From the IMG/VR virus record IMGVR_UViG_2821731843_000002: DNA of 64,000 nucleotides; one strand, 5' to 3'. Position 1 is the first letter of the stretch. Each line of letters opens with the position of its first letter. Origin of the DNA: a virus (lineage: Duplodnaviria > Caudoviricetes). The notes beneath the pieces were generated by a model. It did not search any database, was not told the DNA's origin, and saw only the letters and a program-made list of their open reading frames with translations. Positions 1 to 26,659 of this stretch are shown piece by piece. A program made the translations under genes and the position numbers.

Positions 1-790
1 CTAGGGCTGATGTATCCGGAATCCGTTCTTTGGCCGCTCTATTCTTGCTGCAGCTGTCTTGAATGGCTGCTTCGCAGAATCAAATTTTCTGCATCTGCCA
101 CGTATTTTTGTGCTGCGTGTGCACGCAGCGATATTTCGACATGTCTGCAGTGGGCTCCTACCAGCTGCTCGCTGCGCACCGCGCGAATGTCTGCTTTCGG
201 GAAGCGGCCAAGACTTTGCAAACTCCGTTAACTGCGCATAGCCGCCGTTGGGGCTGACCGCAGCGAAAGTCTGGAACCCGTTATTAGAGCAAAAACACTG
301 CAGTACAGCACCTAGGATTGAGAGCACAATGTATGAATTCATGTCAGTCACGAACGAGCGCATGATGTCATAGCTTCGCCTGAAATTGCTTTCTAGTTCC
401 AGCGCAAGAAAAGGCGCTCTGAGTTTTCGCACCGCCATGATTTCAAACGGTTATTCTCTATCTAGAAAGTCGGCAGTGAACAAAAAGGGCGACTTTCTAG
501 TTCCACGGCTCAAAAATCGCTGGAATTACCGGTGTCTGTGGCATGGGTGGTGGGCATCAGCCTTATTAATATGGCTCTCTGGCGGGCTGGTGGAATTTGC
601 AGAGTTTGGTGCCCCAATACCGGCCGAATGGCGATTTAAGCTCGTTTTAAGCCTTTTTGAAAGACACGCGCCCATTCTGTCCAGATCACGTTTCGTTATC
701 TTAAACGCTCATGTTTTTAAGGCTCTGTCCGGCTTCTTCCACCATCTTCCGGGCTCTTCCGGTTACTGCAATAATAGGTGTCCAACAACA
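1..790 (-). mobile_element. Left end (repressor-side end) of an upstream Mu-like element P0, truncated by the window
   Basis: 388-790 is colinear without indels (offset 38734) with the P1 left end 39122-39524. It ends in ...GTGTCCAACAACA, i.e. 5'-TGTTGTTGGACAC on the minus strand, with a GGACA-N7-TTGCA site at 767-783. Confidence 0.8.
388..790. repeat. 403-bp direct repeat, copy 1 (phage left end)
   Basis: Homologous to 39122-39524. Shared blocks include CTTTCTAGTTCCA, CTAGAAAGTCG, GGTGGAATTTGCAGAGTTTGGTG and CTTCCGGGCTCTTCCGGTTACTGCAATAA. Confidence 0.95.
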
Positions 791-801
791 TTTGGATATC
801 G

Positions 802-806
802 AGCGC
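802..806. repeat. 5-bp target-site duplication AGCGC, right-end side of P1
   Basis: AGCGC immediately precedes TGT at 807, and the same pentamer follows ACA at 39524. Mu-family DDE transposases make 5-bp duplications. Confidence 0.9.
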
Positions 807-852
807 TGTAGCCGGACAGACTTTCTTGCACGGATGGACAGAGATAGTTGCA
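807..852 (+). other. P1 right end with two tandem transposase-binding sites
   Basis: TGTAGCC, then GGACAGActttcTTGCA (814-830) and GGACAGAgatagTTGCA (836-852) at a 22-bp period. The same GGACA-N7-TTGCA motif starts at position 8 of the left end. Confidence 0.85.
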
Positions 853-893
853 GCAACTCGTTTTTGGATTGCTGCAGCTTTTCTTGGAAGAAC

Positions 894-1682
894 TCAAGTG
901 CTTATAGAAGGATATTCGAAACTGAGTTTTTCAATATATGGTTTGAACTCGTCATGGGCGACCTGGCCATATTCTTGGATAACTTGAGTGGCTGTCACTA
1001 GATCTTCGCCAATGTGTTCTGTGATACCGGCGAGAATGCGATTTAGTTGAGCTCCATGTTCATCCACTTGGGCCATATATTTTTTGGGTATTTTGGATTT
1101 TGCTATAGGTCCATCTAACTCTCGTGAGAAACCTGGGACGGTGTGAAGCCATTTGGAGAATTCTAGGTAGTCGGAAGAATATTGGTCTAACAGTTGAAGC
1201 AGATTTGCGGCTCGTTCCTCAACCATCTGTATTTTCCCGATGAGTTCAGAATGCTCCTTAGACAACAAAAAGCTATATTCTTCGACAGTTAATCGATCTG
1301 GCTCAAGGAACTTTCCGACCGAAGGACCAACAATCTGGAATGCTTGGTCTGCCTCATGCCCGTGCGCGTTTGCTTCCTCATAGAACTTATTGATGTGTTC
1401 ATCGACGTTTGCGACTAAGTTGGCCCATCTGGTCAACTTCAAGAAACCCGAAACTGCGCTGCTGGCGTTGTTTCTTATTCTTTCCTCTTCCCGTTTTTTT
1501 CTCTCTAGGGAATTGGAGAAGTAGAACATAGCCAACGCTGTTAAGAGCGCTATACCGCCTCCGATTACTGTAGGAATAATCGCCGACCAACTAAATGATG
1601 CGCTAGTGTCGGGGGCTTGAACGATGATAAATGAAACTCTCGCGTCGATGTCGGATAACCAACTAAAATAGCTTTGCAACAA
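894..1682 (-). CDS. Hypothetical membrane-anchored protein (accessory gene just inside the P1 right end)
   Basis: 262-aa ORF, visibly AT-richer than the phage core. Hydrophobic segment AIIPTVIGGGIALLTALAMFYF followed by a helical region. Confidence 0.7.
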   Translation of the reverse strand: MLQSYFSWLSDIDARVSFIIVQAPDTSASFSWSAIIPTVIGGGIALLTALAMFYFSNSLERKKREEERIRNNASSAVSGFLKLTRWANLVANVDEHINKFYEEANAHGHEADQAFQIVGPSVGKFLEPDRLTVEEYSFLLSKEHSELIGKIQMVEERAANLLQLLDQYSSDYLEFSKWLHTVPGFSRELDGPIAKSKIPKKYMAQVDEHGAQLNRILAGITEHIGEDLVTATQVIQEYGQVAHDEFKPYIEKLSFEYPSIST

Positions 1683-1764
1683 ATTGATGCCTTTCCATGC
1701 GAATATTGTAGATAAGTACTTCTACCACATCGAGTGGCCTTCAGTTTAGCAACTTTTGTCGAGT

Positions 1765-2574
1765 TTACGGGATATCAAAATTCCGTATCAACAGCTCACC
1801 ACGCTTCCCCCTGGCGGTTTCCTTGCGGGCCAGGGTGTAGCTGACCTCAACCTCTTCCATCTCAAACCCAGAAAAGATCTCGCGGATCTCGGGGGTGTCG
1901 TTGATCGACATCAGCGCCTTGCCCTTGGCTACCTTCATCCACTGCGCCAGGGCTTCAAAATCATCCGGTGCAAACATCGCCTTGCCATAATCGTCCTCGC
2001 AGCCCCAGTAGGGCGGGTCTAGGTAGAACAGTGCGGTGGGTCGGTCATAGCGGGTGATGAATTCGCTGTAGGGCAAGCATTCGATCACCACGCCGCTCAG
2101 CCGCGCATGAACGTCTTCGAGCATTGGTTCCAACGTTGATAGATTGAATCGGGCCGGGCGGTCCGGTGACACCCCGAAAGACCGCCCTGATATCTTGCCA
2201 CCAAAGGCGTTGCGCTGGAGATATAGAAACCGCGCTGCGCGCTCCAGATCGGTTAGGGTATCAGGCCGGGTGGCCACCAGGCGCTCGAACTCAACGCGGG
2301 TGGTGAGCTGGAACCGCATGCAGTCGATGAACTGCGGATAGTGGCGCTGCAGAATGCGAAACAGGTTGGCGATGTCGCGGCCGAGGTCGTTGATCACTTC
2401 GGCGCGCGGCCGCATCTGGCGGCGCAGGAAGATACCGCCCATGCCGACAAAGGGCTCGGCGTAAAGACCATGTGGGGTGGCGTCCAGGATCGCGGTGATC
2501 CGTTTGGCCAGGTTGCGCTTGCCGCCCATCCAGGGGGCAACAGGTGAGGTGTTTTGAACTGGGGTTAAACGCAC
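1765..2574 (-). CDS. DNA adenine methyltransferase (Dam/D12 class) at the Mu mom position
   Basis: Motifs PWMGGK, EPFVGMGG (motif I), NDL, and YLDPPY (motif IV). Likely GTG start at 2574 after GGAAAAGG, overlapping the com stop. Confidence 0.92.
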   Translation of the reverse strand: MRLTPVQNTSPVAPWMGGKRNLAKRITAILDATPHGLYAEPFVGMGGIFLRRQMRPRAEVINDLGRDIANLFRILQRHYPQFIDCMRFQLTTRVEFERLVATRPDTLTDLERAARFLYLQRNAFGGKISGRSFGVSPDRPARFNLSTLEPMLEDVHARLSGVVIECLPYSEFITRYDRPTALFYLDPPYWGCEDDYGKAMFAPDDFEALAQWMKVAKGKALMSINDTPEIREIFSGFEMEEVEVSYTLARKETARGKRGELLIRNFDIP

Positions 2575-2753
2575 TTTAAAGAGCCTTTTCCATCGCGGTC
2601 TTGCCGCTTGGATAAAGGGCTCTGTTGTGGCCTCAAGTGATTGTGTGCCTTGCATCTTGGGCACTTGATATTGAGCGCGCCGTGTAGGGCATCACTCTCA
2701 ATTTTAAATAGCAGCCGGGCACATTGGCCGCAACGCTGGTCTTGCATGGACAA
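2565..2753 (-). CDS. com: Com-family zinc-finger translational regulator
   Basis: 62 aa with RCGQCARLLFK...IKCPRCKAHN (two CxxC). TTG start preceded by GAGGTGA. Lies directly upstream of the methylase, as com does in Mu. Confidence 0.85.
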   Translation of the reverse strand: MSMQDQRCGQCARLLFKIESDALHGALNIKCPRCKAHNHLRPQQSPLSKRQDRDGKGSLKCV

Positions 2754-2899
2754 GTGGAATCACCTCAGAAAGGCCACACCCTCGCGAGGGGTGGGAGCGG
2801 CCATAAGGCGATAGCTGGTCGGCGGGGTTTAGTGTGAATATTAGGCCCCGTGTTAAGGAGTGTTACAGCACCCCTTAGCCTCCCTGTAAGGAGGCGTTA
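2587..2899. repeat. com module, near-identical to 42749-43060
   Basis: About 312 bp with scattered substitutions and one indel. Covers com, its leader with the palindrome CCCTCGCGAGGG (2779-2790) and the upstream hairpin. Confidence 0.95.
2878..2895 (-). terminator. Hairpin after the last tail gene (P1)
   Basis: GCCTCC-ctgtaa-GGAGGC right after the stop of the D-like gene. No U-tract is evident. Identical at 43039-43056. Confidence 0.45.
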
Positions 2900-3871
2900 T
2901 GCGTCGTTATCCCGCTCACCGTCAAAGCTGGTGATCAGGGTGTTGCCCAGGCGGTGGGTGACTTGTGTGACCAGCCATTTACCACTCAAACCTGGGTGTA
3001 TGCCCTGCAGATCGACAAAGCCCTCGGCCAGCAATCCGCCGTCAAATCCAGCCAGTTGGATGGACGCCTTACCACTGGCGCGTTTGCTGCTTTCCAGAGC
3101 GCTGTCTGCGGCGCGCTGCGCCTCATTTTGACTGGCATAACGGTGGCGCAGTTTTAGCAGCGGCTCACCATCGCCTGCGCTGACCTGGCGCACCTTTGCA
3201 GCGCCCAGTTCGGACCACTCGGCAATGACCTTACTGTACTTGCCCCGGCCGCTGGCCTTCCAGTTTCCCCGACTCATCTGGGTGACGTTGATAACTGGCA
3301 CTGGAAGGTCGGAGCCGTCGGCGGCTTTGCCGATCCCACGTTTGATAAAGACCAGCGCGCCGCCTGCCGGTTTGGCGGTGGCGTCGAGGTCGCGGGCGAG
3401 GCGGGTTAGGAAGTTCAAATCACTCTCAGCGGTCTGCGCCAGGTACCCATAAAAATGAGCCTTTAAGCTCTCTGCAACAGCAGTTTCAAGACCGTTTTCA
3501 CCGGCGATTTTGGCGACGATGTCCTGGACAGTAACGTCGTCCCAGTTGCGGGTTTTGGGGGCTTTGATGCCGCCCAACATGTCGGCCGCCTTGGCGCTGA
3601 TGGTGAGCGTGTTGGGGAACAGATCACCGGATAGCTCGTCAACCACATAGCGACCCATCGGCACCAGACCAGTCTCTTTGAGACCAAGGCTGATGTCCAG
3701 GACAGCACCCACGTCGGGCAGTTCAATGCGGTTGTCGCGGTTGTCCAAAGTGATTTGCGCCGTGTCAGATTTCTGGCCCGCTTGGTCGGTCAAGGTGAGG
3801 TTGACCAGGCGGTCCTTAAATTGGGCGGTTTGGTCCACAGAATTGGCGATGATTTGAAAGTCTGGCGTCAT
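2897..3871 (-). CDS. Baseplate hub / late control D protein (P2 gpD-like)
   Basis: Motifs LTLTDQAGQKSDTAQITLDN, YLAQTAESDLNFLTRLA and VTHRL. Follows X and U. Confidence 0.88.
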   Translation of the reverse strand: MTPDFQIIANSVDQTAQFKDRLVNLTLTDQAGQKSDTAQITLDNRDNRIELPDVGAVLDISLGLKETGLVPMGRYVVDELSGDLFPNTLTISAKAADMLGGIKAPKTRNWDDVTVQDIVAKIAGENGLETAVAESLKAHFYGYLAQTAESDLNFLTRLARDLDATAKPAGGALVFIKRGIGKAADGSDLPVPVINVTQMSRGNWKASGRGKYSKVIAEWSELGAAKVRQVSAGDGEPLLKLRHRYASQNEAQRAADSALESSKRASGKASIQLAGFDGGLLAEGFVDLQGIHPGLSGKWLVTQVTHRLGNTLITSFDGERDNDA

Positions 3872-3875
3872 GGCA

Positions 3876-4079
3876 TTAGCCCCAAAGTCGCAGCGGTTTG
3901 GCGACGGGTTCAACGGCTTTTTCCGGCAGGATCAACACCAGCCCAAGCGGCAAGACCGGTCCCCGTTTTGCAAGGCCCGGATTGGCTTCATAGACCAGCT
4001 CGACCATGGCCTCAGAGCCGTAGTGTGAGCGGCAAATGGCGTCGACCATATCGCCGTCTTTGGTGCGATAGTTGGTCAT
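3876..4079 (-). CDS. Tail protein X (LysM-like, P2 gpX)
   Basis: MTNYRTKDGDMVDAICRSHYG...VYEANPGLA...LPLGLVLILP. ATG at 4079. Confidence 0.88.
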   Translation of the reverse strand: MTNYRTKDGDMVDAICRSHYGSEAMVELVYEANPGLAKRGPVLPLGLVLILPEKAVEPVAKPLRLWG

Positions 4080-4477
4080 GCCAAATCCGTCCCGTATGAG
4101 CGCAGAGTTAGGGAGAATTCGATCTTGCGAGGTGCCCCGTCGCGCATCAGGTAGCTCTTGCGTTCTTCGACCCGCACAATCACCCAACGCTGCCAAACCC
4201 AACCCAACCCGTCGACCATCATGAACGGCAGGCCTGTTGTGGCCTGAAGCCGCATCAAATCGACCTGGCGCAACCCGCCTTTGAAGTGGGGGTAAATCAC
4301 CCCTTCCAGCGTGATTTCCTGCGCATCCGGCCCCCCGTATTGCAGGGCAGGCGCGCGGCCGATCCGGTTGACCTTGCGCCAGCGAAAGGCGGCACTGCGT
4401 GAGAGCTGCTGGTGGCCGCCATTACTCATACCAAACCGGAAAGCCCCAAGCGCCATCATGACTAAACCAAGTTGCAT
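4076..4477 (-). CDS. Tail tube initiator, P2 GpU family
   Basis: MMALGAFRF...LQYGGPDAQEITLEGVIYP...PRKIEFSLTL. Follows the tape measure gene. Confidence 0.88.
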   Translation of the reverse strand: MQLGLVMMALGAFRFGMSNGGHQQLSRSAAFRWRKVNRIGRAPALQYGGPDAQEITLEGVIYPHFKGGLRQVDLMRLQATTGLPFMMVDGLGWVWQRWVIVRVEERKSYLMRDGAPRKIEFSLTLRSYGTDLA

Positions 4478-7400
4478 TAGAATGTCGCTCCATCGTGTAA
4501 GTCGCTGCGCCGCGCATCCTCACGCGCATCGAGCTCGCGGCGCACTTCGCGCGCCACATCCTCGGGCGACATGCCGGGGGTTGGGTAAATGTTGAAGGTT
4601 ACTGTGTCGCCCTCCTGGACTATGGCTGGCGCGGCCGCAGGCGCTGACATTGCCGGGCGCTGGTCGATGCTTTGCAGGACCTCGGCCTGACTGGGCAGAG
4701 CGGCGGCCGGTGCGGTGATGGCAGAGGCTGCCATAGCGGCGCGCAACACGCGGGTGGGCAGGATTGAACCGGAAACACCGGGCACAAAGATCTCCGGTGA
4801 TCTCTCGCCAACAAGGTAGGGAATACCGGCCCGAACCGGACCGCCGCTGTCGCGCCCGGCCGGTTGGCTGGAGTTGGGGTCGTCGCCGCTGACCCAGTTC
4901 ATTACGTCGGTGATCCACTGGGGCTTTAAGGCGGCCAGTTTTGCAGTGATGGCGTCTACCATTTCCGTAAGGAGTGAACTCATACCGTCCCATAAGGATT
5001 GGAGCAGTGCGACGCCGGTATCATAGAGGCTGAACTCGGCAAACTTGGCGATAATCTCGTCGGGAACACCCATCAGTTCCATGGCGACGGCAACCATCCG
5101 GGCCGCGCCGTCTACCGCTGCGGTGAAGGGGTTGAATTTGGCAATCAGTTTGAAGACGCCATTCAGAATGCCGTCTTCCATATTCAGCCGGATCTCATCA
5201 ACCATTGCGCCCACAAGTGAGCCGAGCCCGTCCCATAGCGACTGGATCAGCGCGACGCCGGTGTCATAAAGACTGAAGGCCCGAAACGCCTCGACGATCT
5301 GTTCGGGAACGCCGAGCAGCTCCATCACATAGGCAATCAGACCCTGCATCCCCTCCATGGCCAGAGTGAAGGGATTGAACTCGGCCAGCAGTTTAAACAC
5401 GCCCTGCAATATACCCTGGTCAAAGGCCGCGCGCACCGCCTCAACTTTCTCAGTCAGAAAGGCCACCAACCGGTCCCAGTTTTGATAAACCACCAGGGCA
5501 AGTGCCGCGAGTGAGGTGATGATCAACCCAACCGGATTGGCCAGCATCAAAAGCCCCAATCGCCAAAAGGCCGTGGACAGCAGTTTGACCCCGCGCAATA
5601 GCGCCACCATCGGGCCTTTGCCAATCCAGGCCAGCAATCGGCCCGCCGCCCGAATTGGGGCCATGGGCAGTAGCCAGACCAGGCGCAGGGCCAGCCAGCC
5701 CCCATAAAGCTTGGCAACAGTTGCGACCAATCCGCTGTTGGCGCTGGTCCACTCTATTACTCGGCCGACCACACCGCCCAGGGCAGTGCCCGCATTGGTG
5801 CCCCAGCTTAGCCACTGCTGTTCGGTGGCATCCATTGGCCCGAGAAGGTTGGTGAACCACTGCCAGATCTCTTTGGCATAGGTGATAATGCTGTCGAGCA
5901 TTGGCGCGGCCGGGCCCAGGGCGTCGCGGAACGTCTGCCAGAACCCGACAAAGAAAGTCTGCAGGCCCTGCCAGTTGTTGTAGATCCACACTCCGGCCAT
6001 CGCGATCCCGACCAGCAGTGCGCCAACACCGGTGGCAATGAAGGCCAGACGCAGAGCAAACAGAGCGCCTCGGATCAGCTTTAAAGGGTTCAGCAGCGCC
6101 AGCAATCCAGCCGCAAGGCGGGGCAGCATCATCACCATCCAGGACGCGGCGCGAAACACATGCAGGATGGGCAGCAGCGTGGAAAACAGCCCCCAGCGCA
6201 AGCCAATGGAGGCGATCTTTACCGCAAGCAATCCAGCCGTGAGCCGGAACAGTTGGGTGATCAATTCCGGGTGGGCCTCAGCCCATTCAATGCTTGCGCC
6301 AATCATCGGCTGCAGCACCGCCAGCAGCTCGTTCAACTCGGGCAGCAAAATGGACCCGGCCGCAATGGCAAAGCCTTTGACAAAGTTGGTGGTGACCACG
6401 ATGGCATTGGCAGTGGTGGCGGCTTGCTTTTGGTATTCCGCCAGCATGGAGCCCGCATAATCTGACGGATCTGCGATCAGTTCAAACGCCTCGCGCAGCA
6501 GATCCACATTGGTCAACAGCGGTGCAATCGCGCCTTTGCTTTCCTCGCCAAATAGCTGGCTGATAGCGGCGCTCTGTTGGTATTCGGGCAGATCAGCCAT
6601 GGCATTGACCACGTCCAGAATTGCGCCCTGGGCATCTTCGTGCATTCGCTTGGACAGCGCCACCGGATCAAAGCCAAGGGCGTCCAGCACCTTTGCCTGT
6701 CGCTTGGTGACAGCCTCGCCTTTGGTCAGTGCGCCCAGAAAGTTTTTCATACCCGTGGCCGCCACTTCCGGCGCGGCACCACCCGATAGAAAGGCCCCGG
6801 CCAGCGCCGCGATCTCTTGTTCCACCAGCCCGGCCGACTGCGCCACAGCACCCTGGCGGCGGATGATATCCACCATCGCCGGGGCGGTGGCGTTCATGTT
6901 GTTAGAGATATGGTTGATCGCATCGCCAAGCCCCAGAGCATCACTTGCGGTCAGCTTCATGGCACTGCGCCAGGTCGCCATGGCCTGACCGGATTGCTCG
7001 GCCGTGATATCAAAGGCAACGCCCATCTGGGCCGCGTCGCGGGCAAAGGCCAGCAGTTGGTTGCGTTCCTCGTCGTCGGGCAGGGCAGAGTCGACAATGC
7101 CAGCCTGACCGGCCGCTTCAATAATCTCCGCAATGCCCTCGGCCGCCATTGGCAGGGCTCCGGACGTGGTGAGCGCCAGAATGTCGCTGCTCATTTTGTC
7201 CAGGCCCTCGGGGCTGTCAAAATCAATGACTTTTGAGACACCGGCCATTGCGGTCTCAAACTGGATGGCGGGCTGCAGGGCTTTGTAAAGCGCATAGCCA
7301 GTGGCGGCGACGGCAAAGGCCTCGCCGCGCAATGCGGCGCGGCGGGCCTCGGTGGCCGCAATCTGGGCATTGGCCCAGTCCACACCGTTGCGCCCGGTCT

Positions 7401-7512
7401 GTTCGGTGACATGGCCGATCTGTTGCAACGCACCCATGACCTGGCGGGCCGGGCCGCTGGCCCGGTCCACCAGATCCAGAATCAAAGCTACATTTAGATC
7501 ACCGACTGCCAT
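4477..7512 (-). CDS. Tape measure protein (TP901-type core)
   Basis: 1011 aa, Ala-rich. Motifs FETAMAGVSKV, QLFGEES and a hydrophobic mid-region. Downstream of the tail chaperone genes. Confidence 0.93.
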   Translation of the reverse strand: MAVGDLNVALILDLVDRASGPARQVMGALQQIGHVTEQTGRNGVDWANAQIAATEARRAALRGEAFAVAATGYALYKALQPAIQFETAMAGVSKVIDFDSPEGLDKMSSDILALTTSGALPMAAEGIAEIIEAAGQAGIVDSALPDDEERNQLLAFARDAAQMGVAFDITAEQSGQAMATWRSAMKLTASDALGLGDAINHISNNMNATAPAMVDIIRRQGAVAQSAGLVEQEIAALAGAFLSGGAAPEVAATGMKNFLGALTKGEAVTKRQAKVLDALGFDPVALSKRMHEDAQGAILDVVNAMADLPEYQQSAAISQLFGEESKGAIAPLLTNVDLLREAFELIADPSDYAGSMLAEYQKQAATTANAIVVTTNFVKGFAIAAGSILLPELNELLAVLQPMIGASIEWAEAHPELITQLFRLTAGLLAVKIASIGLRWGLFSTLLPILHVFRAASWMVMMLPRLAAGLLALLNPLKLIRGALFALRLAFIATGVGALLVGIAMAGVWIYNNWQGLQTFFVGFWQTFRDALGPAAPMLDSIITYAKEIWQWFTNLLGPMDATEQQWLSWGTNAGTALGGVVGRVIEWTSANSGLVATVAKLYGGWLALRLVWLLPMAPIRAAGRLLAWIGKGPMVALLRGVKLLSTAFWRLGLLMLANPVGLIITSLAALALVVYQNWDRLVAFLTEKVEAVRAAFDQGILQGVFKLLAEFNPFTLAMEGMQGLIAYVMELLGVPEQIVEAFRAFSLYDTGVALIQSLWDGLGSLVGAMVDEIRLNMEDGILNGVFKLIAKFNPFTAAVDGAARMVAVAMELMGVPDEIIAKFAEFSLYDTGVALLQSLWDGMSSLLTEMVDAITAKLAALKPQWITDVMNWVSGDDPNSSQPAGRDSGGPVRAGIPYLVGERSPEIFVPGVSGSILPTRVLRAAMAASAITAPAAALPSQAEVLQSIDQRPAMSAPAAAPAIVQEGDTVTFNIYPTPGMSPEDVAREVRRELDAREDARRSDLHDGATF

Positions 7513-7639
7513 GGTGCGTTGCCTCGTGTTGAGCTTTGAGCCGCTGTCGCGCTTTTTCGCGCCAGAGGGCCAGATCTTCGATGGGCAGGTCGTCCATCAC
7601 ATCGGGGGGCCAGTGAAAGACAAAGGCGATATCCGCCAT
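7499..7639 (-). CDS. GpE'-family tail chaperone extension, reached by -1 frameshift (not in the ORF track)
   Basis: MADIAFVFHWPPDVMDDLPIEDLALWREKA... in the -1 frame of 7666-7983. That frame is open from the slippery run at 7721-7727. Confidence 0.8.
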   Translation of the reverse strand: MADIAFVFHWPPDVMDDLPIEDLALWREKARQRLKAQHEATHHGSR

Positions 7640-7665
7640 TGCCTCTTCCACGTCGTCGGGAAAGC

Positions 7666-7983
7666 TTAGTTGACCGCTTCCAGCTCCAGCACCTGACCTT
7701 CCAACTGCTCCTGTTTGATGAAAAAAAGCATGGTCTTGCCCGCCAAATCGGTGAAGTCTTTCGGGTCCAGATCTGCAATCTGACTCTCGTTCAAGGGCGG
7801 CTGAGTGATGCGCGGCAGTAATTTGGTCAAAGCGCCTACGTCCATCTGCAGGATGCTGGTCAGAGCAAGGCCGCGCAGCTCTCCCGTTTTGGGTTTGCGC
7901 AGGGTGATTTCAAAGACGTCTTCGCCGTCGATCTGGACCGGCTCGACGAGGGTGACGGCGTTCAATTTGGTGATTTTTGACAT
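7666..7983 (-). CDS. Tail assembly chaperone (P2 gpE / Mu gp41-like)
   Basis: ITLRKPKTGELRGL...LLPRITQPPL...LDPKDF. ATG at 7983. Confidence 0.85.
   Translation of the reverse strand: MSKITKLNAVTLVEPVQIDGEDVFEITLRKPKTGELRGLALTSILQMDVGALTKLLPRITQPPLNESQIADLDPKDFTDLAGKTMLFFIKQEQLEGQVLELEAVN
7721..7727 (-). other. Programmed -1 ribosomal frameshift site (T TTT TTT)
   Basis: U7 run in the codons CTT TTT TTC near the chaperone 3' end. The -1 frame runs into the GpE' ORF, as in P2 E/E'. Confidence 0.75.
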
Positions 7984-7987
7984 GGGT

Positions 7988-8272
7988 TTAAATCCGATTT
8001 GAAGAGGGGGTTTTGGAAGTCTGTTTTGCTTCCAATTCGTCGAGACGTGTTCGCGCCTGCTCAATGGTCAGCTTCTCGTTGGTACTTCCCAGCAGACAGA
8101 GAAAGGCCCCGGCGAGAAAGACGATAAAGCCAGCCCATTGCATGGCGGTGCTGTCTACCAAAACACCAGGCCCAAAGAGAATGGCCACCAAAATCAACCA
8201 CTGAAGAATTACCAACCACATGGGAACATGTTTGTGGCGGTGGTCGATGACCTTGATATTCAAGCTGTCCAT
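7988..8272 (-). CDS. Small two-TM membrane protein inserted in the tail operon (moron-like)
   Basis: 94 aa with two hydrophobic helices and a GGAGG Shine-Dalgarno. Sits between the tube and chaperone genes. Confidence 0.65.
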   Translation of the reverse strand: MDSLNIKVIDHRHKHVPMWLVILQWLILVAILFGPGVLVDSTAMQWAGFIVFLAGAFLCLLGSTNEKLTIEQARTRLDELEAKQTSKTPSSNRI

Positions 8273-8301
8273 GGGGCCTCCAGGGAATATTGAATTAAGT
8301 T

Positions 8302-8330
8302 ATCGCAGGCGGCATCATACCGCCCGCGAT
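8302..8330 (-). terminator. Hairpin after the tail tube gene
   Basis: ATCGCaGGCGG-catcata-CCGCCcGCGAT, followed on the minus strand by an AT-rich stretch. Confidence 0.5.
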
Positions 8331-8345
8331 GTTAGGACCGGTCGC

Positions 8346-8843
8346 TTAGACGCCCATGGCCTTGCGCAGCTCAACGACCTGGTCGACGCCGCCGATAACG
8401 CGCTTGCCTGCCAGGATGTCGATTTCAAACAACTCGTCGCCGTTCATAGTCAGGCGGAAATAATCAACCGCCAGGGACAGCTTTAGCGGCACATCACTGC
8501 CGGGTTTCAGATCGCCAAAGTTGGTCGAGGTCCAGCGCCCACCCAAAGTGGCCACATAGGTGTCGGCTGAGAAATCATCCTCACCCATGGCAGCAGGGCG
8601 CAGGACCAGGCGCTTGCGGGTGCCAAACAGCTTAACGGCGTTTGGCGACCATTCGGACAGGGTGACTTCGGCATTCATCGCCTCAGTGCCCATGTCCACA
8701 GGCGAGACCCCGTCCATGCCAGCGCCCCGGTGGTTGGCCACCTGCATTTTGAGCTCGGGCAGCTTTCCCTCGGTGGCACGGCCTGCATAGCTGACCCCGT
8801 CCAGGAAGGCGTTGAAGTTGCGAATAGTGCGTGGATATATCAT
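8346..8843 (-). CDS. Major tail tube protein (P2 FII-like)
   Basis: IRNFNAFLDGVSYAG...LPELK...HRGAGMDG...FEIDILAGKRVIGGVD. Confidence 0.92.
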   Translation of the reverse strand: MIYPRTIRNFNAFLDGVSYAGRATEGKLPELKMQVANHRGAGMDGVSPVDMGTEAMNAEVTLSEWSPNAVKLFGTRKRLVLRPAAMGEDDFSADTYVATLGGRWTSTNFGDLKPGSDVPLKLSLAVDYFRLTMNGDELFEIDILAGKRVIGGVDQVVELRKAMGV

Positions 8844-8860
8844 CGCGATTGTCCTTTCGA

Positions 8861-10045
8861 TTAAGCGGCGGCGCTGACCGAGGAAATCAATTCCTCGTAA
8901 TATTCACCCTCGCGGTGGGCCCGGAAAATCAAATGTTCCAGCGGTGCGGGAGGCTCAAAGTCAAAGTCGAGATAGAGCTTGCCCGCCTTCAGGGTGGTCT
9001 CGGTGTTCAGCTCCGGGTCCAGCCAACACTTGAAGCCCAGCAAGGCACCGACATTGACCATCTGTTGGCCAAAGCCCTGCACCCCGTCGCGGATGTCTTC
9101 AAAAAGCTGCGCCGACATGGGGCGGTCCATCGCCCAAAGATGCGCGGCCTCAATGCTTTCATAGATGATGTCGGCGGTGCGGCGCACGGACAGGAAAGCC
9201 CATTGGGCATCTGGCGTGGTGCTGCGGTTGCCCCAGAGGCGGAAGCCATCACGGCGAATGATTGTGGCCACCTCGGCCTCGTTCATCCGGTTAGCCTCGG
9301 TCTCGGTGGAACTGAGGTGGAAGCCGACGGGGCGCGTTGTGCCAGATATACCGTTGATCACCTGGTTGGACGGCGACCACCAGAAGCCGCGCTCGATGTC
9401 GCGTTTGGCGATCAACCCGGCCACATAAGCAGAGGCAGGGCGGGTGACATACGCGGCACTGACGGTGTCAAACACCGTGACGGCCGGATCCACAATGAAC
9501 AACCGGTCAGAGCCCCAGTTGCCGCGCTCAGTTTTGGCGTCGGTCTCATCAGTGTTGGGGCCATCGGCAATGACCACAGCGCGGATCTTTTCCGCCACCG
9601 CGACCAGATTGGTGGTTACTGGATTGGCCGGGTCGCCCGGTATTGTGCTGGTAAAGCCAGGAGCGGCGAGAATGCGGGGTGTCAGATCCAGCTTGCTGCG
9701 CGAGGCTTCCAGCGCCCAGACGCCGGTAAACGCAGTGGCATCGCCGACAATATTGGCCAGGGTGGCGGCATCATCTGCGCCCTCGGCGACCCGGATGAAC
9801 ACGGCGACGCTGGCCCCTTGGGCATAGAGCGCCTCATAGGCATGTTTCAGAGTGCCGGCATCATTTAGCAGGGCGGCTTTGCGTGGACCTTCGACCAACA
9901 CGGGCGTGTCCAGAGGAAAGATCGCCGCGTCGGCATCTGGTGCCGTTCCCACAATGCCAATGACCGAACTTTTGGCGGTGGAAATGGGGCGGATACCATC
10001 GTCAATCTGGACGACTTCCACCCCGTGAAGAAACTGTTCGGGCAT
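8861..10045 (-). CDS. Contractile tail sheath protein (P2 FI-like)
   Basis: FLHGVEVV, PRILAAPGF, GFWWSPSN, GFRLWGNR, FEPPAPLEHL. Confidence 0.95.
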   Translation of the reverse strand: MPEQFLHGVEVVQIDDGIRPISTAKSSVIGIVGTAPDADAAIFPLDTPVLVEGPRKAALLNDAGTLKHAYEALYAQGASVAVFIRVAEGADDAATLANIVGDATAFTGVWALEASRSKLDLTPRILAAPGFTSTIPGDPANPVTTNLVAVAEKIRAVVIADGPNTDETDAKTERGNWGSDRLFIVDPAVTVFDTVSAAYVTRPASAYVAGLIAKRDIERGFWWSPSNQVINGISGTTRPVGFHLSSTETEANRMNEAEVATIIRRDGFRLWGNRSTTPDAQWAFLSVRRTADIIYESIEAAHLWAMDRPMSAQLFEDIRDGVQGFGQQMVNVGALLGFKCWLDPELNTETTLKAGKLYLDFDFEPPAPLEHLIFRAHREGEYYEELISSVSAAA

Positions 10046-10047
10046 GA

Positions 10048-10569
10048 TTACGCCCCTCCGTTGATCTGAGTTTGGGCCTCGTTAAAGGCTGTTTCTGCCA
10101 GGGCTTTTGCATTCCCAAGCACGGTTTGGATTTGCGCCTCGATGTCGACTGCATCCTCCGCAATGGCGGCGATGGCGGCCTTGGTCTCGGCTTCAAGAGC
10201 GCCGATCAGCAGGGCAATCTGGCGATAGGCAGAGGCCTTGGCGTTGATCTCCGCCAGCAGTGCCTCCGAGGTGATGCCACGGGCTGCAGCCTCGCGGTCA
10301 ATCATCGCTAGTTCTGCAGGTGCTGCACTGGCTGGATCGCGGGCGATCTCTTCCTTGAAGCGGTATTCCGCAAGCTTGCCCGGCGAGGCACTGGAAATCT
10401 GGGCGCGATAGGCGTTGGTGAACACTGCCACTTCCGTGCGCGCGCCTTGTTTAACCGCGGCACTGATGACGGGTGCCGGAACGCCCGCATCCTGGGCCGA
10501 TGCCACAGACCAGTTGTAGTAGGGCTGGCCGTTGTGTTCGAAACTGATGGTCAGGGTCATGAGCTGCAT
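10048..10569 (-). CDS. Tail fibre assembly/accessory protein
   Basis: 173 aa, helical, directly after the fibre-like gene in the tail operon. Confidence 0.55.
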   Translation of the reverse strand: MQLMTLTISFEHNGQPYYNWSVASAQDAGVPAPVISAAVKQGARTEVAVFTNAYRAQISSASPGKLAEYRFKEEIARDPASAAPAELAMIDREAAARGITSEALLAEINAKASAYRQIALLIGALEAETKAAIAAIAEDAVDIEAQIQTVLGNAKALAETAFNEAQTQINGGA

Positions 10570-10572
10570 TCC

Positions 10573-11286
10573 TTACAAGCTGGTTAGATTGGTGGCGATA
10601 AGGGTGCGGATGCTGGCCGGATCAGTTGCGGCGGCGACGTCCTGTATCCAGCGCCCTGCCACCGGGCCAGTGCCGCCGTTGAGGTTGGAGACACTCAGCG
10701 CGCAAAACACATCGTTGTTGATGACGCATTGATCGGACCCGACAGGCAAGTCGATCTGACAATTGCTCAAGCGCAGGGTCATGTTGCCCCGCGAGCGGAA
10801 CATGCCTTTGTCGGTGACGCCAGCCCCGGCGGTGACGGCCTCAAACTGGATTTCCTGGCACTCGAAATAGCAGTTGCTATGGAGCGAGGACAAATCGGCG
10901 GTGCTGGCCGTATCCCCTTCCGAGGTGCCTGCAAATGTCACCTTAGCCCGACCGCCTCCCGTGACCTGGGCCTTGAACGCAACGCTCTGCTGTTTAAAAT
11001 CCACCCGCTTGGAGACGTGATAATCCGTCAGGAAATAGACCGTCAGCAACCCGCCCATGGGCGTCATATTGGCAGCCTTCTGGAGAGTCAGAAACGGGCT
11101 GGCCTCACTGCCGTCATTGGCATCATCACCCGCGACCTGATCCACATAAAAGGTGCGGTTGATATTTGGGAAGGCCGCCAGGGCAGCGGCCAAAGACGCG
11201 TCAATCACGGCATTCTTACCTTGGTAAGCTGCCGCCAAGTCAGTGATCGCCGTGATGGCTGCAGTCATTTGTTCGGTTGTGGTCAT
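10573..11286 (-). CDS. Short tail fibre / receptor-binding protein candidate
   Basis: N-terminal coil, then FYVDQVAGDDANDGSEASPFLTLQKA (a motif typical of beta-helix starts). Position after the baseplate genes. Confidence 0.6.
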   Translation of the reverse strand: MTTTEQMTAAITAITDLAAAYQGKNAVIDASLAAALAAFPNINRTFYVDQVAGDDANDGSEASPFLTLQKAANMTPMGGLLTVYFLTDYHVSKRVDFKQQSVAFKAQVTGGGRAKVTFAGTSEGDTASTADLSSLHSNCYFECQEIQFEAVTAGAGVTDKGMFRSRGNMTLRLSNCQIDLPVGSDQCVINNDVFCALSVSNLNGGTGPVAGRWIQDVAAATDPASIRTLIATNLTSL

Positions 11287-11296
11287 TGGGATCTCC

Positions 11297-11812
11297 TCAA
11301 TAGCTGCCGGTCAGAGCGCGCAGGAGCTCGGACTGGTTGAATTGTTCAAGGTGCAGGGTGGCGTGGCTGTAGGCGGTGGCGACGGTCAGATCGAACAGCG
11401 CATCGTCGGGCGCGTCGATGATCACCAATCCCTCGGCGATCTGGCTAAAGCTCAGGATGTGCTCGGCGATATGGGTAACCACACCAACCGTGAAGGGTTG
11501 GAAATCACTTCCTGCCCAGAGGAAAATCAGATTACCTTCGCTGTCGAAGAACCCCATTTCACGGGCATCAAATACCGGATCGCCTGGGGCGAACTCGGCC
11601 GTTATGCGCCAGGCGTTGCTGTCAACGATGTGGCGCTTGGTAATCGCCACGCGGGTCCGTTCATTGCGCAAGCCAATCTGGCCGTGGCCCGGATCGTAAC
11701 TGGCCCCGTTGGCATCGCCGATTGCCACTTCGGTGATAGCCACCTGAGTGCCAGATCCGGCGGCGGCGTTGATCAGTGAGACGCCAATGTCAGTTAAAAG
11801 TGTTTGGGTCAT
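11297..11812 (-). CDS. Tail-collar / fibre N-terminal protein (P2 gpH N-terminus-like)
   Basis: LLTDIG...ITEVAIGDANG...FDAREMGFFDSEGNLI. ATG at 11812. Confidence 0.8.
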   Translation of the reverse strand: MTQTLLTDIGVSLINAAAGSGTQVAITEVAIGDANGASYDPGHGQIGLRNERTRVAITKRHIVDSNAWRITAEFAPGDPVFDAREMGFFDSEGNLIFLWAGSDFQPFTVGVVTHIAEHILSFSQIAEGLVIIDAPDDALFDLTVATAYSHATLHLEQFNQSELLRALTGSY

Positions 11813-12552
11813 CAGGCGACCGCCCTTTCTGTAATGAGGTGAGTGACGCGCGAAAGTGATTTGGGGCGCAGGGCACTGCGCAGGCAAAGCCCGGTGCTCA
11901 AGGTATTGGCGCGCGCCGCTGGATCGTGTGTGTCCTCGGATCTCCGGGTCATGCGGATCGATGCCCGCAAGGAAACCGCGCTTACCAATTCAGATGGCCG
12001 GGGGATTGGATCACTGGCCACGATCAGGTGCTGGGTGGATCGCGCGCCGGTGCGCAATGCAACAGTGGCGCCCACGCTTTGGCCGATCCGCAGCTCGTAA
12101 TGGGCGCTGGCAGGTTTCACATTGTCCAGGACACGGGACAGGGTGGCAAAGAGCGCCTGGTCGATCTGCAATCCAGCCCCAAGAATATCATCGCCAAACG
12201 CGTCAACGCGGAAGGTATGGGCCGCGCCGCCGTATTCAAACCACTCCGAGATGTCGGTTCTAAAGCCAAGGCTGGCCAAGACACGGCGCACGGCCCCGCG
12301 TGTGCCTTTGACCCGGTGAACGGCAATGCTTTGCCGGATTGTGTCGCGCTTCTCAGCCTCTGACCAGGCAGCGCCCCAAACGTCGACCGAGAAGGCCCAG
12401 GCGAGCCAACCCAACAGCGGCGCGGGGCAGGTATCCGGGTTCATGAGTGTGGCGACCGCCGTCAGATCCGGCTTGGACTTGCCGATGGCCTGTTCAAGCG
12501 CGCGCTCTAGTGCGGTGCTGTTTGGGGGCAGGATGGTGGGCAGGTCAGACAT
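11812..12552 (-). CDS. Baseplate wedge protein (P2 tail protein I)
   Basis: LPPNSTALERAL, NPDTCPAPLLGWLAWAFSVDVW, HRVKGT. Confidence 0.92.
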   Translation of the reverse strand: MSDLPTILPPNSTALERALEQAIGKSKPDLTAVATLMNPDTCPAPLLGWLAWAFSVDVWGAAWSEAEKRDTIRQSIAVHRVKGTRGAVRRVLASLGFRTDISEWFEYGGAAHTFRVDAFGDDILGAGLQIDQALFATLSRVLDNVKPASAHYELRIGQSVGATVALRTGARSTQHLIVASDPIPRPSELVSAVSLRASIRMTRRSEDTHDPAARANTLSTGLCLRSALRPKSLSRVTHLITERAVA

Positions 12553-13450
12553 TGGTGCCCCCCAAGCTCAAGGCGGGCGCAATGGGGCAATAAGCGGCCT
12601 CAGTGTCGCCGACCACGATGTCGGCCAGCGGCTCGGTCAGGTTCACTTTTTGAACGCCGGGCTGGTGCAGGGCGCTGTAGATCCCCGACAGAGTGATATC
12701 AAAGCCAAGGCGGTTTTGTTCGGTGATGTAGGTGGCAATGGCGGCCTGCGCGGCGTCCAGGACCGTGTCGCTGTCGGGGCCGCTAAACAGCACCAACTCG
12801 GCGGTGATCTGATAGGGAATGAGAGTTGCAGCCTGAACCACGACCTGGTCCGTCAGGGGCCGCACGTCTTCACCGTTTAAGACGGTTTCAACGGCGTTTA
12901 AAACGCTGTTTGACGGTGTGCCGTCGTTGTCATGCGACAGCACGGTTACCGTCACCTGGCCGGGGATCTCAGAAATAACAGAGACGTCTTTGATCTCGCC
13001 AGAGGCCGAGCGCGCCCAAAAGATATAAGAGCCGCGCGGTCCCGCCGTGGAATGCCCTTCCAGCGAAAGTTGCACCCGCTGGCGCAAGGCGTCGTCGCTT
13101 TCCATGATCTGCGCAATGGGAGGTGAGACGCTGTCGTCAGCCTCTTGTGCCACCAGGCGCACGACACCCCAATAAGCCGCCAACCCATCCAGATCGGTGC
13201 CGGTGCTGAGTGCCAGCATATTGGCCCGCGCACCGTCGTTGAATTCCAGACGGTCCAACATGCGATGATAAGCACAGACTCGCAGCAGCTTGGTGACCGG
13301 TTCGCTTTCCAGTGCCAGGTACGGCTCCAGTTCGGGCATCTGGATGATGGCCTCGGCCTTCATTTCCGCCAACAAGGTTTCATAGGCGACGGTCTGGATC
13401 ACCTCGGGGGCAGGCAGCTTGGACAGGTCAATCGGGGTAAAGCCGCTCAT
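12545..13450 (-). CDS. Baseplate J protein
   Basis: IDLSKLPAP, ESEPVTKLL, STAGPRGSY, DVRPLTD. Confidence 0.93.
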   Translation of the reverse strand: MSGFTPIDLSKLPAPEVIQTVAYETLLAEMKAEAIIQMPELEPYLALESEPVTKLLRVCAYHRMLDRLEFNDGARANMLALSTGTDLDGLAAYWGVVRLVAQEADDSVSPPIAQIMESDDALRQRVQLSLEGHSTAGPRGSYIFWARSASGEIKDVSVISEIPGQVTVTVLSHDNDGTPSNSVLNAVETVLNGEDVRPLTDQVVVQAATLIPYQITAELVLFSGPDSDTVLDAAQAAIATYITEQNRLGFDITLSGIYSALHQPGVQKVNLTEPLADIVVGDTEAAYCPIAPALSLGGTNV

Positions 13451-13791
13451 TGGGTTGCGCCTTCAGTGTCGAGGCTCAATGGCATTGAGATCTCAAGGCC
13501 GTCGGCGTCGGTCAGTGCAAACTCGGCGTAGCCTGCGCCGGTGTTTACCAGCTCAATACGCGCCAGCTCGATACGCGGTTCCCACAGGTCCAGCGCCTCG
13601 GCCGTGGCCATGTAGGCGTCGATCATGGTTTCGCCATTCAAGGGCTGGTCGATGATGTTTGGCAGATCCGAGCCATAGCTGCGCTGCATCACCAGTGACC
13701 CCTTGGGCGTGGTGAGGATGTCGTGGATCGACTGCGCCAGATGCGCCGCGCCACTGAGCTGTCGCCCGCTATGTCGATCCATTCCACTCAT
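13447..13791 (-). CDS. Baseplate wedge W (gp25-like)
   Basis: HLAQSIHDILTTPKGS...RSYGS...WEPRI. Confidence 0.92.
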   Translation of the reverse strand: MSGMDRHSGRQLSGAAHLAQSIHDILTTPKGSLVMQRSYGSDLPNIIDQPLNGETMIDAYMATAEALDLWEPRIELARIELVNTGAGYAEFALTDADGLEISMPLSLDTEGATQ

Positions 13792-13988
13792 GTTTTGGCT
13801 TTGGCCTTTTTGGGAGTGGCTGTCTTGGCAGGCTCATTGTCCTGGTCCGTTTTGAGACGGACGTTTTCATAGCGCGCCTGGTCCTTGGTCAGCGATAGAG
13901 TGTCGCCTGCTTTGCAGCGCTGACCGGCCACCCAGCCTGCGGCGGTGACGGTGTACTCATGCTTTGAGATCACTGGTTTCTTGCTCAT
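13788..13988 (-). CDS. Small conserved baseplate-region protein
   Basis: 66 aa with start/stop overlaps to both neighbours (V and W). Confidence 0.7.
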   Translation of the reverse strand: MSKKPVISKHEYTVTAAGWVAGQRCKAGDTLSLTKDQARYENVRLKTDQDNEPAKTATPKKAKAKT

Positions 13989-14419
13989 TTGTTTGGCTCT
14001 CCTGTGTCGGCCCCGCCTAGGGCAATTCCGTTGTGGGTGTGGTGCACAAGGCTGACACCGCTGGCGATCACATCGCCGGTCACTTCAATGTCGCCATTCA
14101 CAATCATCTTGCCGCCGCCCAGATTGATCATCGGCACGCCGCCGTCCGAGCTTGGGGCGTTTCCAGCAAAGACCGAGCAAAGGATTGTTGCCTGGGCCAT
14201 GTCCCCAGACGGGGCCCCAACCATCACCTGTTCGCCGACACTGGGCATCCACCAGAATTGAATGGCACCGGCGCTAAGCTGTCCCACCTGGATCAGCGGC
14301 GTGGTCAGATCGCCGATTTTCACCTTGGCGGCCGAGCTGCCAGGATCGACAGACACAACAGTGCCAATCTGCAGGACGTTGCCCAGTCGGCGGTCGGTTT
14401 CAGAGGCGTTCAAAGTCAT
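13985..14419 (-). CDS. Baseplate spike protein V
   Basis: WWMPSVGEQV and C-terminal GDIEVTGDVIASGVSLVHHTH. Confidence 0.92.
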   Translation of the reverse strand: MTLNASETDRRLGNVLQIGTVVSVDPGSSAAKVKIGDLTTPLIQVGQLSAGAIQFWWMPSVGEQVMVGAPSGDMAQATILCSVFAGNAPSSDGGVPMINLGGGKMIVNGDIEVTGDVIASGVSLVHHTHNGIALGGADTGEPNK

Positions 14420-14970
14420 GAGGTTGGCTCTCCGACTTGGGTGTAGCCGGTGACATTGTCGGTGCCGATCGCTGGCGACTGCGCCACATACAATTCGGCT
14501 CCCAAGGGCGCTGCCTCAACTGTGTGGAACGTCACCGGCTGGCCCCAGGTTACGGCCCAGAGTGACGAGGTGATGTCCTTTGCGCCGCTCGACACCAGGG
14601 TGTGCATGTGAACGCCTTGGGCTGCTCCCAGTGCGGGTTCCCCCCAGCGCTTGCCCGGAATAAGGGTCAACAAGGCCTGGCAGATATTGGCGGCGGCAAG
14701 GTCACGCGGTGCGCCGAGACCGTCGCGGGTCACCACATAGGCAGCCATCGACAGTACAAAGCTATGAGCTGCATCGCTGCGAGTGACCCCAGGCTTTGCG
14801 CCCAAGGTGGAAATCAGAACTGCAGGGGCGGGCAGGCCACTTTTCTTCAGCTCTTCCAGTGAGAATTTCCCGGCGTGGGGTTTGCAGGTTTTCAATTCGG
14901 GAAGCCGCAATTTAACGGCGTCACATACCGATTGTGGCAACCGCGCCAGGACTTGGTCGATATCGCTCAT
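14416..14970 (-). CDS. Tail terminator / Mu gp37-like protein
   Basis: 184 aa. Position after G; the sequence PAVLIS...SLWAVTW fits this class. Confidence 0.65.
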   Translation of the reverse strand: MSDIDQVLARLPQSVCDAVKLRLPELKTCKPHAGKFSLEELKKSGLPAPAVLISTLGAKPGVTRSDAAHSFVLSMAAYVVTRDGLGAPRDLAAANICQALLTLIPGKRWGEPALGAAQGVHMHTLVSSGAKDITSSLWAVTWGQPVTFHTVEAAPLGAELYVAQSPAIGTDNVTGYTQVGEPTS

Positions 14971-15413
14971 TGCAACAGCTCCGTCAGGCGGCCGGTCACA
15001 AGGTCGGAAATATCCAGCTCGTCTTCAGCCGAGACACCCAGATAGGGGCGCGCGGGCACACCGCTGCCGATTTCGTCACCGCCAAATTGGTGATGCGCCG
15101 CATAGACCAGGTTAGACCCCACATGAGCGGCGGTGCCGGTTGCATAGCTCTGGATACTGTCCAGCAGATCGCCGTCGCTGACCAACAGGGAATGGCGGTC
15201 ATGATCGCGGGTGTCGTCATAGGCCTCAGACCAGGGCGTCCAGGCTGCGCCGTCCGGATCAATCTTGGTTTCAAAACGACGCCGTGTTGAGCTTTCCAGC
15301 AGTGCACCGGCCTCGTCAGCCAGTTGCGCCATGTCAAAACCGGCCAAAGCCCCAAGTTTGCGGATGGCATCGTCCAGGCCAAGGGTGGTCAAAGATGCGG
15401 TGACGCCAGTCAT
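14967..15413 (-). CDS. Virion morphogenesis protein (Mu gpG / tail completion S)
   Basis: DPDGAAW, GSNLVYAAHHQFGG, PARPYLG. Confidence 0.9.
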   Translation of the reverse strand: MTGVTASLTTLGLDDAIRKLGALAGFDMAQLADEAGALLESSTRRRFETKIDPDGAAWTPWSEAYDDTRDHDRHSLLVSDGDLLDSIQSYATGTAAHVGSNLVYAAHHQFGGDEIGSGVPARPYLGVSAEDELDISDLVTGRLTELLQ

Positions 15414-15449
15414 ATTAAGTGTCCTACCGCTTTGCTACTTGAGGACATG

Positions 15450-15893
15450 TCAGAGCCCCTTCATTTTTTCGCGGGTGAACTCGCGCGGCGGACCACCCGC
15501 AACAATCGGGCGGGGGCGGGATGGTTCCGATGGGGCTTCGCTGTCGCCGTCAGTTGCGGCCGTCAGAACCAAAGTCGCAGTGCCTTTGGCGATTTTTTCC
15601 AGATGCTTGATCGCGTCCTCATAGCGCTGGCGGTGCTCTTCCGAGAGCACATCGCGCGATGACGCCAGCCGATAGATCGCGATATCAACGCAGAACTGCA
15701 CCAGCAGATCCGGATTTTCACCGAGAGGCAGGGTGTAACGGACCGCCAGATAGCTGTCGATTTCACCGGACGCTGAGGCCAGCGCCCGTGTGATGGCATC
15801 CACGTCAGGCACACCGTCGCCATCCCGGTCCGCCACATAAAGCGCGTCCTCGGAATACAGCGTGACAATGTCTGACTGGGTTGCGTAGGCCAT
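15450..15893 (-). CDS. Head-tail adaptor, Mu gp36 (DUF1320)
   Basis: MAYAT, EIDSYLAVRYTLPL, DIAIYRL, RYEDAIKHLEKIAKG. Confidence 0.9.
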   Translation of the reverse strand: MAYATQSDIVTLYSEDALYVADRDGDGVPDVDAITRALASASGEIDSYLAVRYTLPLGENPDLLVQFCVDIAIYRLASSRDVLSEEHRQRYEDAIKHLEKIAKGTATLVLTAATDGDSEAPSEPSRPRPIVAGGPPREFTREKMKGL

Positions 15894-16000
15894 CGGTTTC
15901 TCTTGTGGTTTTTCGGGTTTGAAAAAAGGTCCGGAGCTATGGGGCTCCCCATTCGCAGTGCTCCGGTACCGCGAAGGATCATCGTTCCCCAGGTATTGGG

Positions 16001-16387: not shown

Positions 16388-16413
16388 GGGTCTGCCTTTC
16401 AAAGAAAATGGAA

Positions 16414-16488
16414 TGGTTGCGGAGGCGGGATTTGAACCCGCGACCTCCAGCTTATGAGGCTGGCGAGCTACCGCTGCTCTACTCCGCT
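16414..16488 (-). tRNA. tRNA-Met(CAU), initiator-like but atypical
   Basis: 75-nt cloverleaf AGCGGAG-TA-GAGC-AGCGGTA-GCTC-G-CCAGC-CTCATAA-GCTGG-AGGTC-GCGGG-TTCAAAT-CCCGC-CTCCGCA-A-CCA, with encoded CCA. Confidence 0.92.
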
Positions 16489-16498
16489 ACGCGTGGCC

Positions 16499-17410: not shown

Positions 17411-17416
17411 GGCAGG

Positions 17417-18379: not shown

Positions 18380-18411
18380 GGGGCGACAATGCCCCGCCAA
18401 ATGCGGGCTTA

Positions 18412-24769: not shown

Positions 24770-24771
24770 CG

Positions 24772-26648: not shown

Positions 26649-26659
26649 GGTAATTGGTA

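Follow-up and report, generated by a model that had tools for sequence, protein, structure and literature searches.

Phage Mu inserts almost at random and in either orientation. Tn7, whose TnsB resembles MuA and whose TnsC resembles MuB/TniB, makes a 5-bp duplication and uses a preferred site beside a conserved gene, where its right end faces the gene, insertions have one orientation and diverged elements stack; the ends of Tn7 confer immunity, not attraction. In the insertion sequences IS911 and IS30 the transposase recognises an end-like target sequence and inserts beside it in a defined orientation, which leaves abutted ends.

The target choice of Mu is limited by cis-immunity and genome immunity, which spare the flanking DNA up to about 5 kb from its ends as well as the whole of its own genome (PMC7350765, which also discusses the relation between Mu and Tn7). 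The D3112-group Pseudomonas phages Ab30 and 2P1 have insertion hotspots 55-61 bp from a BIME/REP palindromic motif, and in Ab30 these hotspots show no orientation bias and take about 5% of the events, while immunity holds and 0.4% of the events fall inside the phage (PMC5977238). End targeting by IS911 and IS30 is treated in a reference (Rousseau et al. 2008, J Bacteriol 190:6111) listed in PMC2909936. From the Roseobacter group, a Mu-family prophage of Phaeobacter inhibens T5, “Phage A”, is described as carrying an xre-luxR-luxI switch and being under quorum-sensing control in a preprint whose passages found by a term search do not treat target choice or arrays (bioRxiv 10.64898/2026.07.02.736140). 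In the literature that we searched, no Mu-like phage was found to be described as inserting next to resident ends or at a preferred site.

The locus studied here belongs to the Parasedimentitalea genome G000. The window, i.e. the whole stretch of 64,000 nucleotides that was analysed (G000 C1:1677733-1741732), holds one end of a first Mu-like element (P0), all of a second (P1) and part of a third (P2'), and its features are collected in Table 1.

Table 1. Features of the window, numbered from its first nucleotide.
Feature	Position	Strand	Remark
P0, left-end portion	1..790	-	remainder of the element upstream of the window in G000
TTTGG, right copy of the P0 target duplication	791..795	.	positions 57-61 of the P2' right end
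ATATCG, between both target pentamers	796..801	.	positions 62-67 of the P2' right-end region
AGCGC, left copy of the P1 target duplication	802..806	.	positions 68-72 of the P2' right end
P1, Mu-like myovirus-type prophage, 38,718 bp	807..39524	-	right end 807, left end 39524; genes toward the right end
Conserved 61-nt right end	807..867	+	contains direct repeats of 22 bp at 5-26 and 27-48 (core GGACAGA...TTGCA)
P1 MuA-like transposase gene	30190..32764	-	disrupted by five single-base deletions in homopolymers, as compared with P0, where the gene is intact
AGCGC, right copy of the P1 target duplication	39525..39529	.	directly after the P1 left end
P2' body, Mu-like prophage	39530..64000	-	P0 and P1 interrupt its right end; its left end is outside the window, at C1:1771555
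95-aa ORF, last P2' gene before the right end	39541..39828	-	stop 11 nt from the P1 target pentamer

The left terminus of P0 (TGTCCAACAACA, 779-790) and the right end of P1 (TGTAGCCGGACA, beginning at 807) are separated by 16 bp (790 to 807), and these read as the earlier note had described them, as TTTGG, ATATCG and AGCGC. The left end of P1 closes with the same 12-mer TGTCCAACAACA at 39513-39524, after which follow AGCGC, 11 nt and the stop codon of the 95-aa ORF at 39541-43, so the distances of 22 and 11 bp that had been given from the two target pentamers to this stop hold as well. The ORF itself is without a match in Pfam or PHROG. Within the window the exact 12-mers are present at these ends only, and the last 440 bp of P0 and P1 (351-790 and 39085-39524) are about 80% identical, which excludes chance words and identifies them as homologous element ends.

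The right end of P0, which the earlier note expected upstream behind a TTTGG, is found at G000 C1:1641524 with TTTGG directly before it (C1:1641519-1641523). P0 is thus not an end fragment but a complete element of 36,999 bp (C1:1641524-1678522) with a matching duplication, just as P1 has AGCGC on both flanks. Upstream of P0, outside the window, there is a third right end (R end), a stub of 61 nt that terminates in TTTGG (C1:1641463-1641523) and is 97% identical to the R end of P1. The R end of P2' picks up after P0 (TTTGG-ATATCG-AGCGC) and again after P1 (AGCGC-TGAGAC...), from where it runs into the late genes of P2'. The stub and these two continuations place P0 and P1 inside the R end of P2', as had been suspected. 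P0 and P1 are simple insertions by transposition, each with a perfect 5-bp duplication; their target sites are 11 bp apart and just inside the two 22-bp direct repeats of the P2' R end, and both elements have the same orientation. The simplest order of events would be that P1 came first and then P0.

A junction of this kind could be an artefact of misassembled repeated prophages, or it could stem from circular or concatemeric forms that gave tandem copies through homologous recombination. The elements have 4.5-9 kb in common at 90-98% identity, and the homopolymer indels of the P1 MuA gene suggest imperfect polishing in repeats. Such processes are, however, at odds with the perfect 5-bp duplications around P0, P1 and an element of another genus (G273, see below), with the largely different content of P0, P1 and P2', and with the same junction types lying inside contigs of at least ten independent assemblies, and we regard this explanation as barely conceivable.

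P0 had been taken for a prophage, and here the earlier note has to be corrected, for there are no virion genes among its 37 kb. In gene content it is a Mu-type cargo transposon, whose cargo is confined to genes for two-component signalling, transport and enzymes. A CHASE histidine kinase is accompanied by other kinases and by four response regulators; the element also encodes a phosphonate ABC transporter, an S41 peptidase and an amidohydrolase, as well as a cytochrome-c-peroxidase-like protein and a WD40 protein of 1108 aa. This cargo is absent from five congeners. We considered that it might be captured local host DNA and found no support for this, since it is not congener chromosomal DNA and is unrelated to the DNA beside the empty site. 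The length of P0 is near that of prophage P1, which fits a putative packaging of P0 by a helper phage. The element is in any case an example of Mu-type machinery able to move 37 kb of non-phage cargo.

The Mu-type virion module (portal, MuF, capsid gpT and tail) that P0 lacks is present in both P1 and P2'. P1 has genes for terminase, portal, MuF, capsid, sheath and tape measure, and furthermore a ParB-like gene, a Dam methylase, gpD, LuxR, LuxI and pieces of MuA and MuB; no close relative of it was found in the phage database. Its LuxR-type and LuxI-type genes are situated in the left-arm accessory region (window 35453-36830, + strand), and a tRNA-Met-like sequence, 92% identical to a Rhizobium phage tRNA-Met, lies inside the head operon (window ~16410-16487). 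P2' has genes for terminase, portal, MuF, capsid, tape measure and tail fibre. It owes its length of about 54 kb to 13.7 kb of ABC-transporter cargo between the early genes and the left end (C1:1757400-1771074, with two ABC transporters, a GntR regulator and a racemase), and it is probably too long for a Mu-size head. Near their R ends P1 and P2' have a stretch of about 310 bp in common (2587-2899 and 42749-43060, 96-99% identity) with different neighbour genes, in P1 the Dam methylase. Just past the left end of P2' there is an inverted 32-nt left-end fragment (C1:1772011), which provides the ATG and the first codons (MSNNN...) of a 152-aa ORF (C1:1771565-1772042); we considered whether it marks a nested element of opposite orientation and concluded that it is a remnant.

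The three elements have a central block in common, in which a ParB-like gene accompanies MuA and MuB. The MuA of P0 (734 aa) matches PF02914, PF09039, PF09299 and PF02316, i.e. all the Mu-specific domains, and the MuB of P2' (252 aa) matches AAA_22 and TniB as well as a PHROG annotated as “DNA transposition protein”. The MuA gene is intact in P0, has five homopolymer deletions in P1 when compared with the P0 copy, and is interrupted by a TTG-to-TAG amber codon in P2'; the MuB gene is intact in P2', and P0 and P1 have the same -1 frameshift in it (G5 to G4). The lesions are located at window 30190-32764, window 29801-30543 and C1:1755026-1755028 (the amber codon). As assembled, none of the three elements has both genes intact, so their present-day activity is hypothetical, a point against a reading in which targeting is directed. 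The elements may have decayed in complementary ways, and the changes in homopolymers may instead be errors left by the polishing of repeats.

The structure of the ends is that of Mu-type elements, with TG...CA termini, repeated putative transposase sites and 5-bp duplications (TTTGG, AGCGC, and GTGAC in G273). The 61-nt R end is 94-100% identical among P0, P1, P2', Px and the right ends of congeners, and its two 22-bp repeats are, judging from their sequence, the presumed transposase-binding sites. Among the early-region proteins scanned against Pfam and PHROGs there was no match to TnsD/TniQ, TnsE or TnsA. The ORF upstream of the ParB-like gene was considered as a candidate TniQ/TnsD-like selector; its N-terminal half looks non-coding, and Pfam, PHROGs and Atlas yielded no family for it.

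The earlier note had supposed that these phages may have a preferred target, and had proposed that insertion sites of relatives be mapped across genomes. We compared eight Parasedimentitalea genomes, G000 included, many of the congener assemblies being drafts, with other Rhodobacteraceae genera, and read the DNA that follows each left-end terminus. R ends of the P0/P1/P2' type are present in six of the seven congeners. Within Parasedimentitalea 19 of 27 left-end junctions abut an R end or the R-proximal DNA of another element, and in the other genera 6 of 15 are R-associated. When pooled, 25 of the 42 left-end junctions abut a resident R end, counts that include two duplicate pairs in G000 and some borders that possibly are common by descent. 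All 25 are head to tail and none is in the opposite orientation. The remaining 8 of the 27 left ends in the genus are followed by ordinary DNA (e.g. an IS3 transposase gene), and the elements therefore prefer R ends without being bound to them. From C1:1771556 on, the DNA that flanks the left end of P2' was tried as R-proximal because of a 13-nt resemblance, but BLAST gave no similarity and it was counted as non-R.

Numbered from the R terminus, the 19 positions in the genus are ~-17, -5, -4 (three times), 5, 6-7, 31, 46 (twice), 47, 51, 57, ~64, 68, ~115, ~172 and ~385 (twice), with an accuracy of only 1-2 nt in diverged ends. In Parasedimentitalea and the other Rhodobacteraceae taken together, the positions cluster from about -17 to +11 and from +31 to +72. 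No truncated left ends were seen among the junctions surveyed. R-end stubs stand before R ends in at least ten genomes, as R[1-9], [1-10], [1-11], [1-15], [1-25], [1-35], [1-55] and [1-61], of which 9-11 nt is the commonest length, and the short ones pile up at array borders. In G273, which belongs to another genus, an element of 41,302 bp is flanked by GTGAC, equal to R[7-11] of the resident, and a second identical stub lies upstream; together with P0 and P1 this element makes up the only three nested insertions in which both copies of the duplication are preserved. In several junctions in which a left end and an R end are separated by 5 bp, the spacer is R[5-9] or R[6-10] (three junctions in G007, and G180).

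The matches found in G000, 8 to the left end and 4 to the right end, all sit in two arrays. A left end abutting R position 46 occurs twice, inverted (C1:1796269-1797336 and 2625707-2626774, 97.6% identical over 1070 bp), and the second array, at C1:2.62-2.73 Mb, has duplicated left-end junctions at 2667150 and 2699273. The duplicated junctions point to large rearrangements between the arrays.

The stacking is lineage-wide, orientation-specific and far from random. It could nevertheless be argued that insertion is nearly random, as in Mu, and that selection and shared descent have made the pattern, in that only harmless insertions such as those in a prophage end survive and the arrays are inherited. 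An insertion between the last gene and the terminal repeats does disrupt nothing, G000, G003 and G002 have the same border offset, and some left ends do lie in ordinary DNA. Such a history cannot produce a uniform head-to-tail order, 25 of 25, in a target window of about 100 bp when the genomes have 4-5 Mb and other neutral DNA is abundant; in several genera, too, the ends are diverged and the positions of insertion distinct. In Mu, moreover, the element and its surroundings are closed to insertion (PMC7350765). We find an origin by random insertion and selection highly unlikely.

The promoter of a DUF2852 gene (142 aa) is adjoined by the outer R end of an array in seven of the eight Parasedimentitalea species, and the same is found in at least four further genera. 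This promoter has two conserved palindromes. In six congeners the R end is placed 5-75 bp past the distal one, in a seventh it takes the place of that palindrome, and one congener, G005, has an empty landing site. The right border of the G000 array was not located by synteny with this empty site, the synteny being broken. Counted from the distal palindrome, the landing point of P0 spans +61 to +65 and that of P1 +72 to +76, and diverged R ends of other genera are found at the same locus and in the same orientation at +43 (G069), +59 (G415), +28 to +61 with stubs (G236) and +112 (G021). The positions at this locus thus spread from +5 to +112 over at least five genera, all in one orientation. 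Further loci are also used, and the DUF2852 locus accounts for 4 of the 18 non-congener R ends examined. The palindromes, ATGTRAA-N5-TTYACAT, are located at C1:1641357-1641462 in G000 and at the homologous loci L047-L057, they are conserved across Rhodobacteraceae genera, and from their sequence they look like the operator pair of a regulator.

With a landing site of this kind it is natural to ask if the host site is all that counts. As with Tn7, insertion would be guided by a factor that is bound to the DUF2852 promoter, or to promoters like it, to a point about 40-80 bp away and in one orientation, and later elements would strike the resident R end for the sole reason that it has come to occupy the spot. 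Measured from the distal palindrome, the naive and nested insertion points of at least five genera do cluster between +43 and +76, repeated use of one pentamer would also yield junctions in which left end and R end are separated by 5 bp, and the array borders at other loci are similarly placed, 60-270 bp in front of a gene whose transcription leads away from them (a prpE-like gene in G000 and G006, and an acyl-CoA dehydrogenase gene). What this explanation does not account for is that identical R-terminal stubs of 9-11 nt are present at loci without DUF2852 (G002:C2, G273, G056, G324 and G231), that the spacers derive from R[5-10] itself, and that insertion peaks exactly at the R terminus whatever the distance to the host gene; nor was there any TnsD/TniQ-like gene among the proteins scanned. 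We consider it unlikely that the host site acts alone. The resident R ends do lie within the window where naive insertions land, so the R-end and the host-site determinants are only partly separable.

The explanation that we favour, and think is probably correct, is that Mu-like elements of Parasedimentitalea and other Rhodobacteraceae insert preferentially in or beside the R end of a resident relative, head to tail, in arrays seeded at a few promoter-proximal sites. We infer that target choice is directed both by the resident R end and by the promoter of the landing pad. An array would start at one of a few landing sites, chiefly the DUF2852 promoter, with the R end facing the gene, and later elements would land in or beside the resident R end and leave nested arrays with R-end stubs at the border. 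P0 and P1 would have entered the R end of the resident P2' in two separate events of DDE transposition. Tandem relatives may later recombine, so that the intervening DNA is deleted and the stubs remain.

As for the mechanism, a complex of protein and DNA on the resident R end could attract the incoming transpososome. This complex most simply would be transposase on the two R sites, setting the edge and the polarity of a filament of the MuB-like ATPase. The same attraction could act at the landing-pad promoter through a look-alike or bent complex. An active homing of this kind, in which MuA and MuB, perhaps with the ParB-like protein encoded beside MuA or with a host regulator, are attracted to a transposase-bound R end and to one promoter-proximal landing pad, is a proposition to which we give an even chance. 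The behaviour is best read as the reverse of the cis-immunity and target immunity of Mu. If the homing is true, target immunity has been turned inside out in a functional intermediate between the free-roaming Mu and the site-seeking Tn7, and elements such as P0, with cargo but no virion, can accumulate in the arrays. End-directed stacking would also explain how these marine bacteria have come to have, at one locus, arrays longer than 100 kb in which prophages and cargo transposons are combined. A Mu lineage that homes to ends would be a handle on how machines of the MuA/MuB and TnsB/TnsC types read their “self” ends and set orientation, a question that bears on the evolution of Tn7 and the CRISPR-associated transposons as well as on the engineering of directed insertion.

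The elements resemble Mu in their MuA, with Mu-specific DNA-binding, DDE and C-terminal domains, and in a MuB-like AAA+ ATPase, and equally in their TG...CA ends with tandem 22-bp sites, the 5-bp duplication, the genomes of about 37-39 kb and the head genes of Mu type. They are unlike Mu in that resident R ends are favoured, in one orientation, and that a chromosomal landing site recurs. Near-random target choice with immunity at resident ends, which is a behaviour of Mu and not a formal criterion of its family, is not what is found here. In Ab30 and 2P1, as here, transposable elements have many insertions at some distance from a palindrome, in our case 43-76 bp from a promoter palindrome, but those phages are without the end-directed stacking and the orientation bias that we observe. 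P1 is similar to Phage A in being a Mu-family prophage of the Roseobacter group with its own LuxI/LuxR pair.

Insertion beside a copy of the element's own end is what IS911 and IS30 do, a match in behaviour only and without any sequence relationship, as these are unrelated small copy-out/paste-in IS families with circle intermediates, no phage and no MuB-type ATPase. The comparison with Tn7, which the earlier note had made, stands for the behaviour, while membership among Tn7-like transposons would be conjectural. In common with Tn7 the elements have a preferred site beside a conserved gene, the right end facing that gene, a single orientation and stacking. They differ in that no homologue of TnsA or of the TnsD/TniQ selectors was found among the proteins scanned, that their insertion points scatter over tens of bp, and that P1 and P2' carry full virion modules. 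The preferred target that had been suspected is thus supported by left and right ends joined head to tail, by R-end stubs and by a common chromosomal landing site used in one orientation in several genera.
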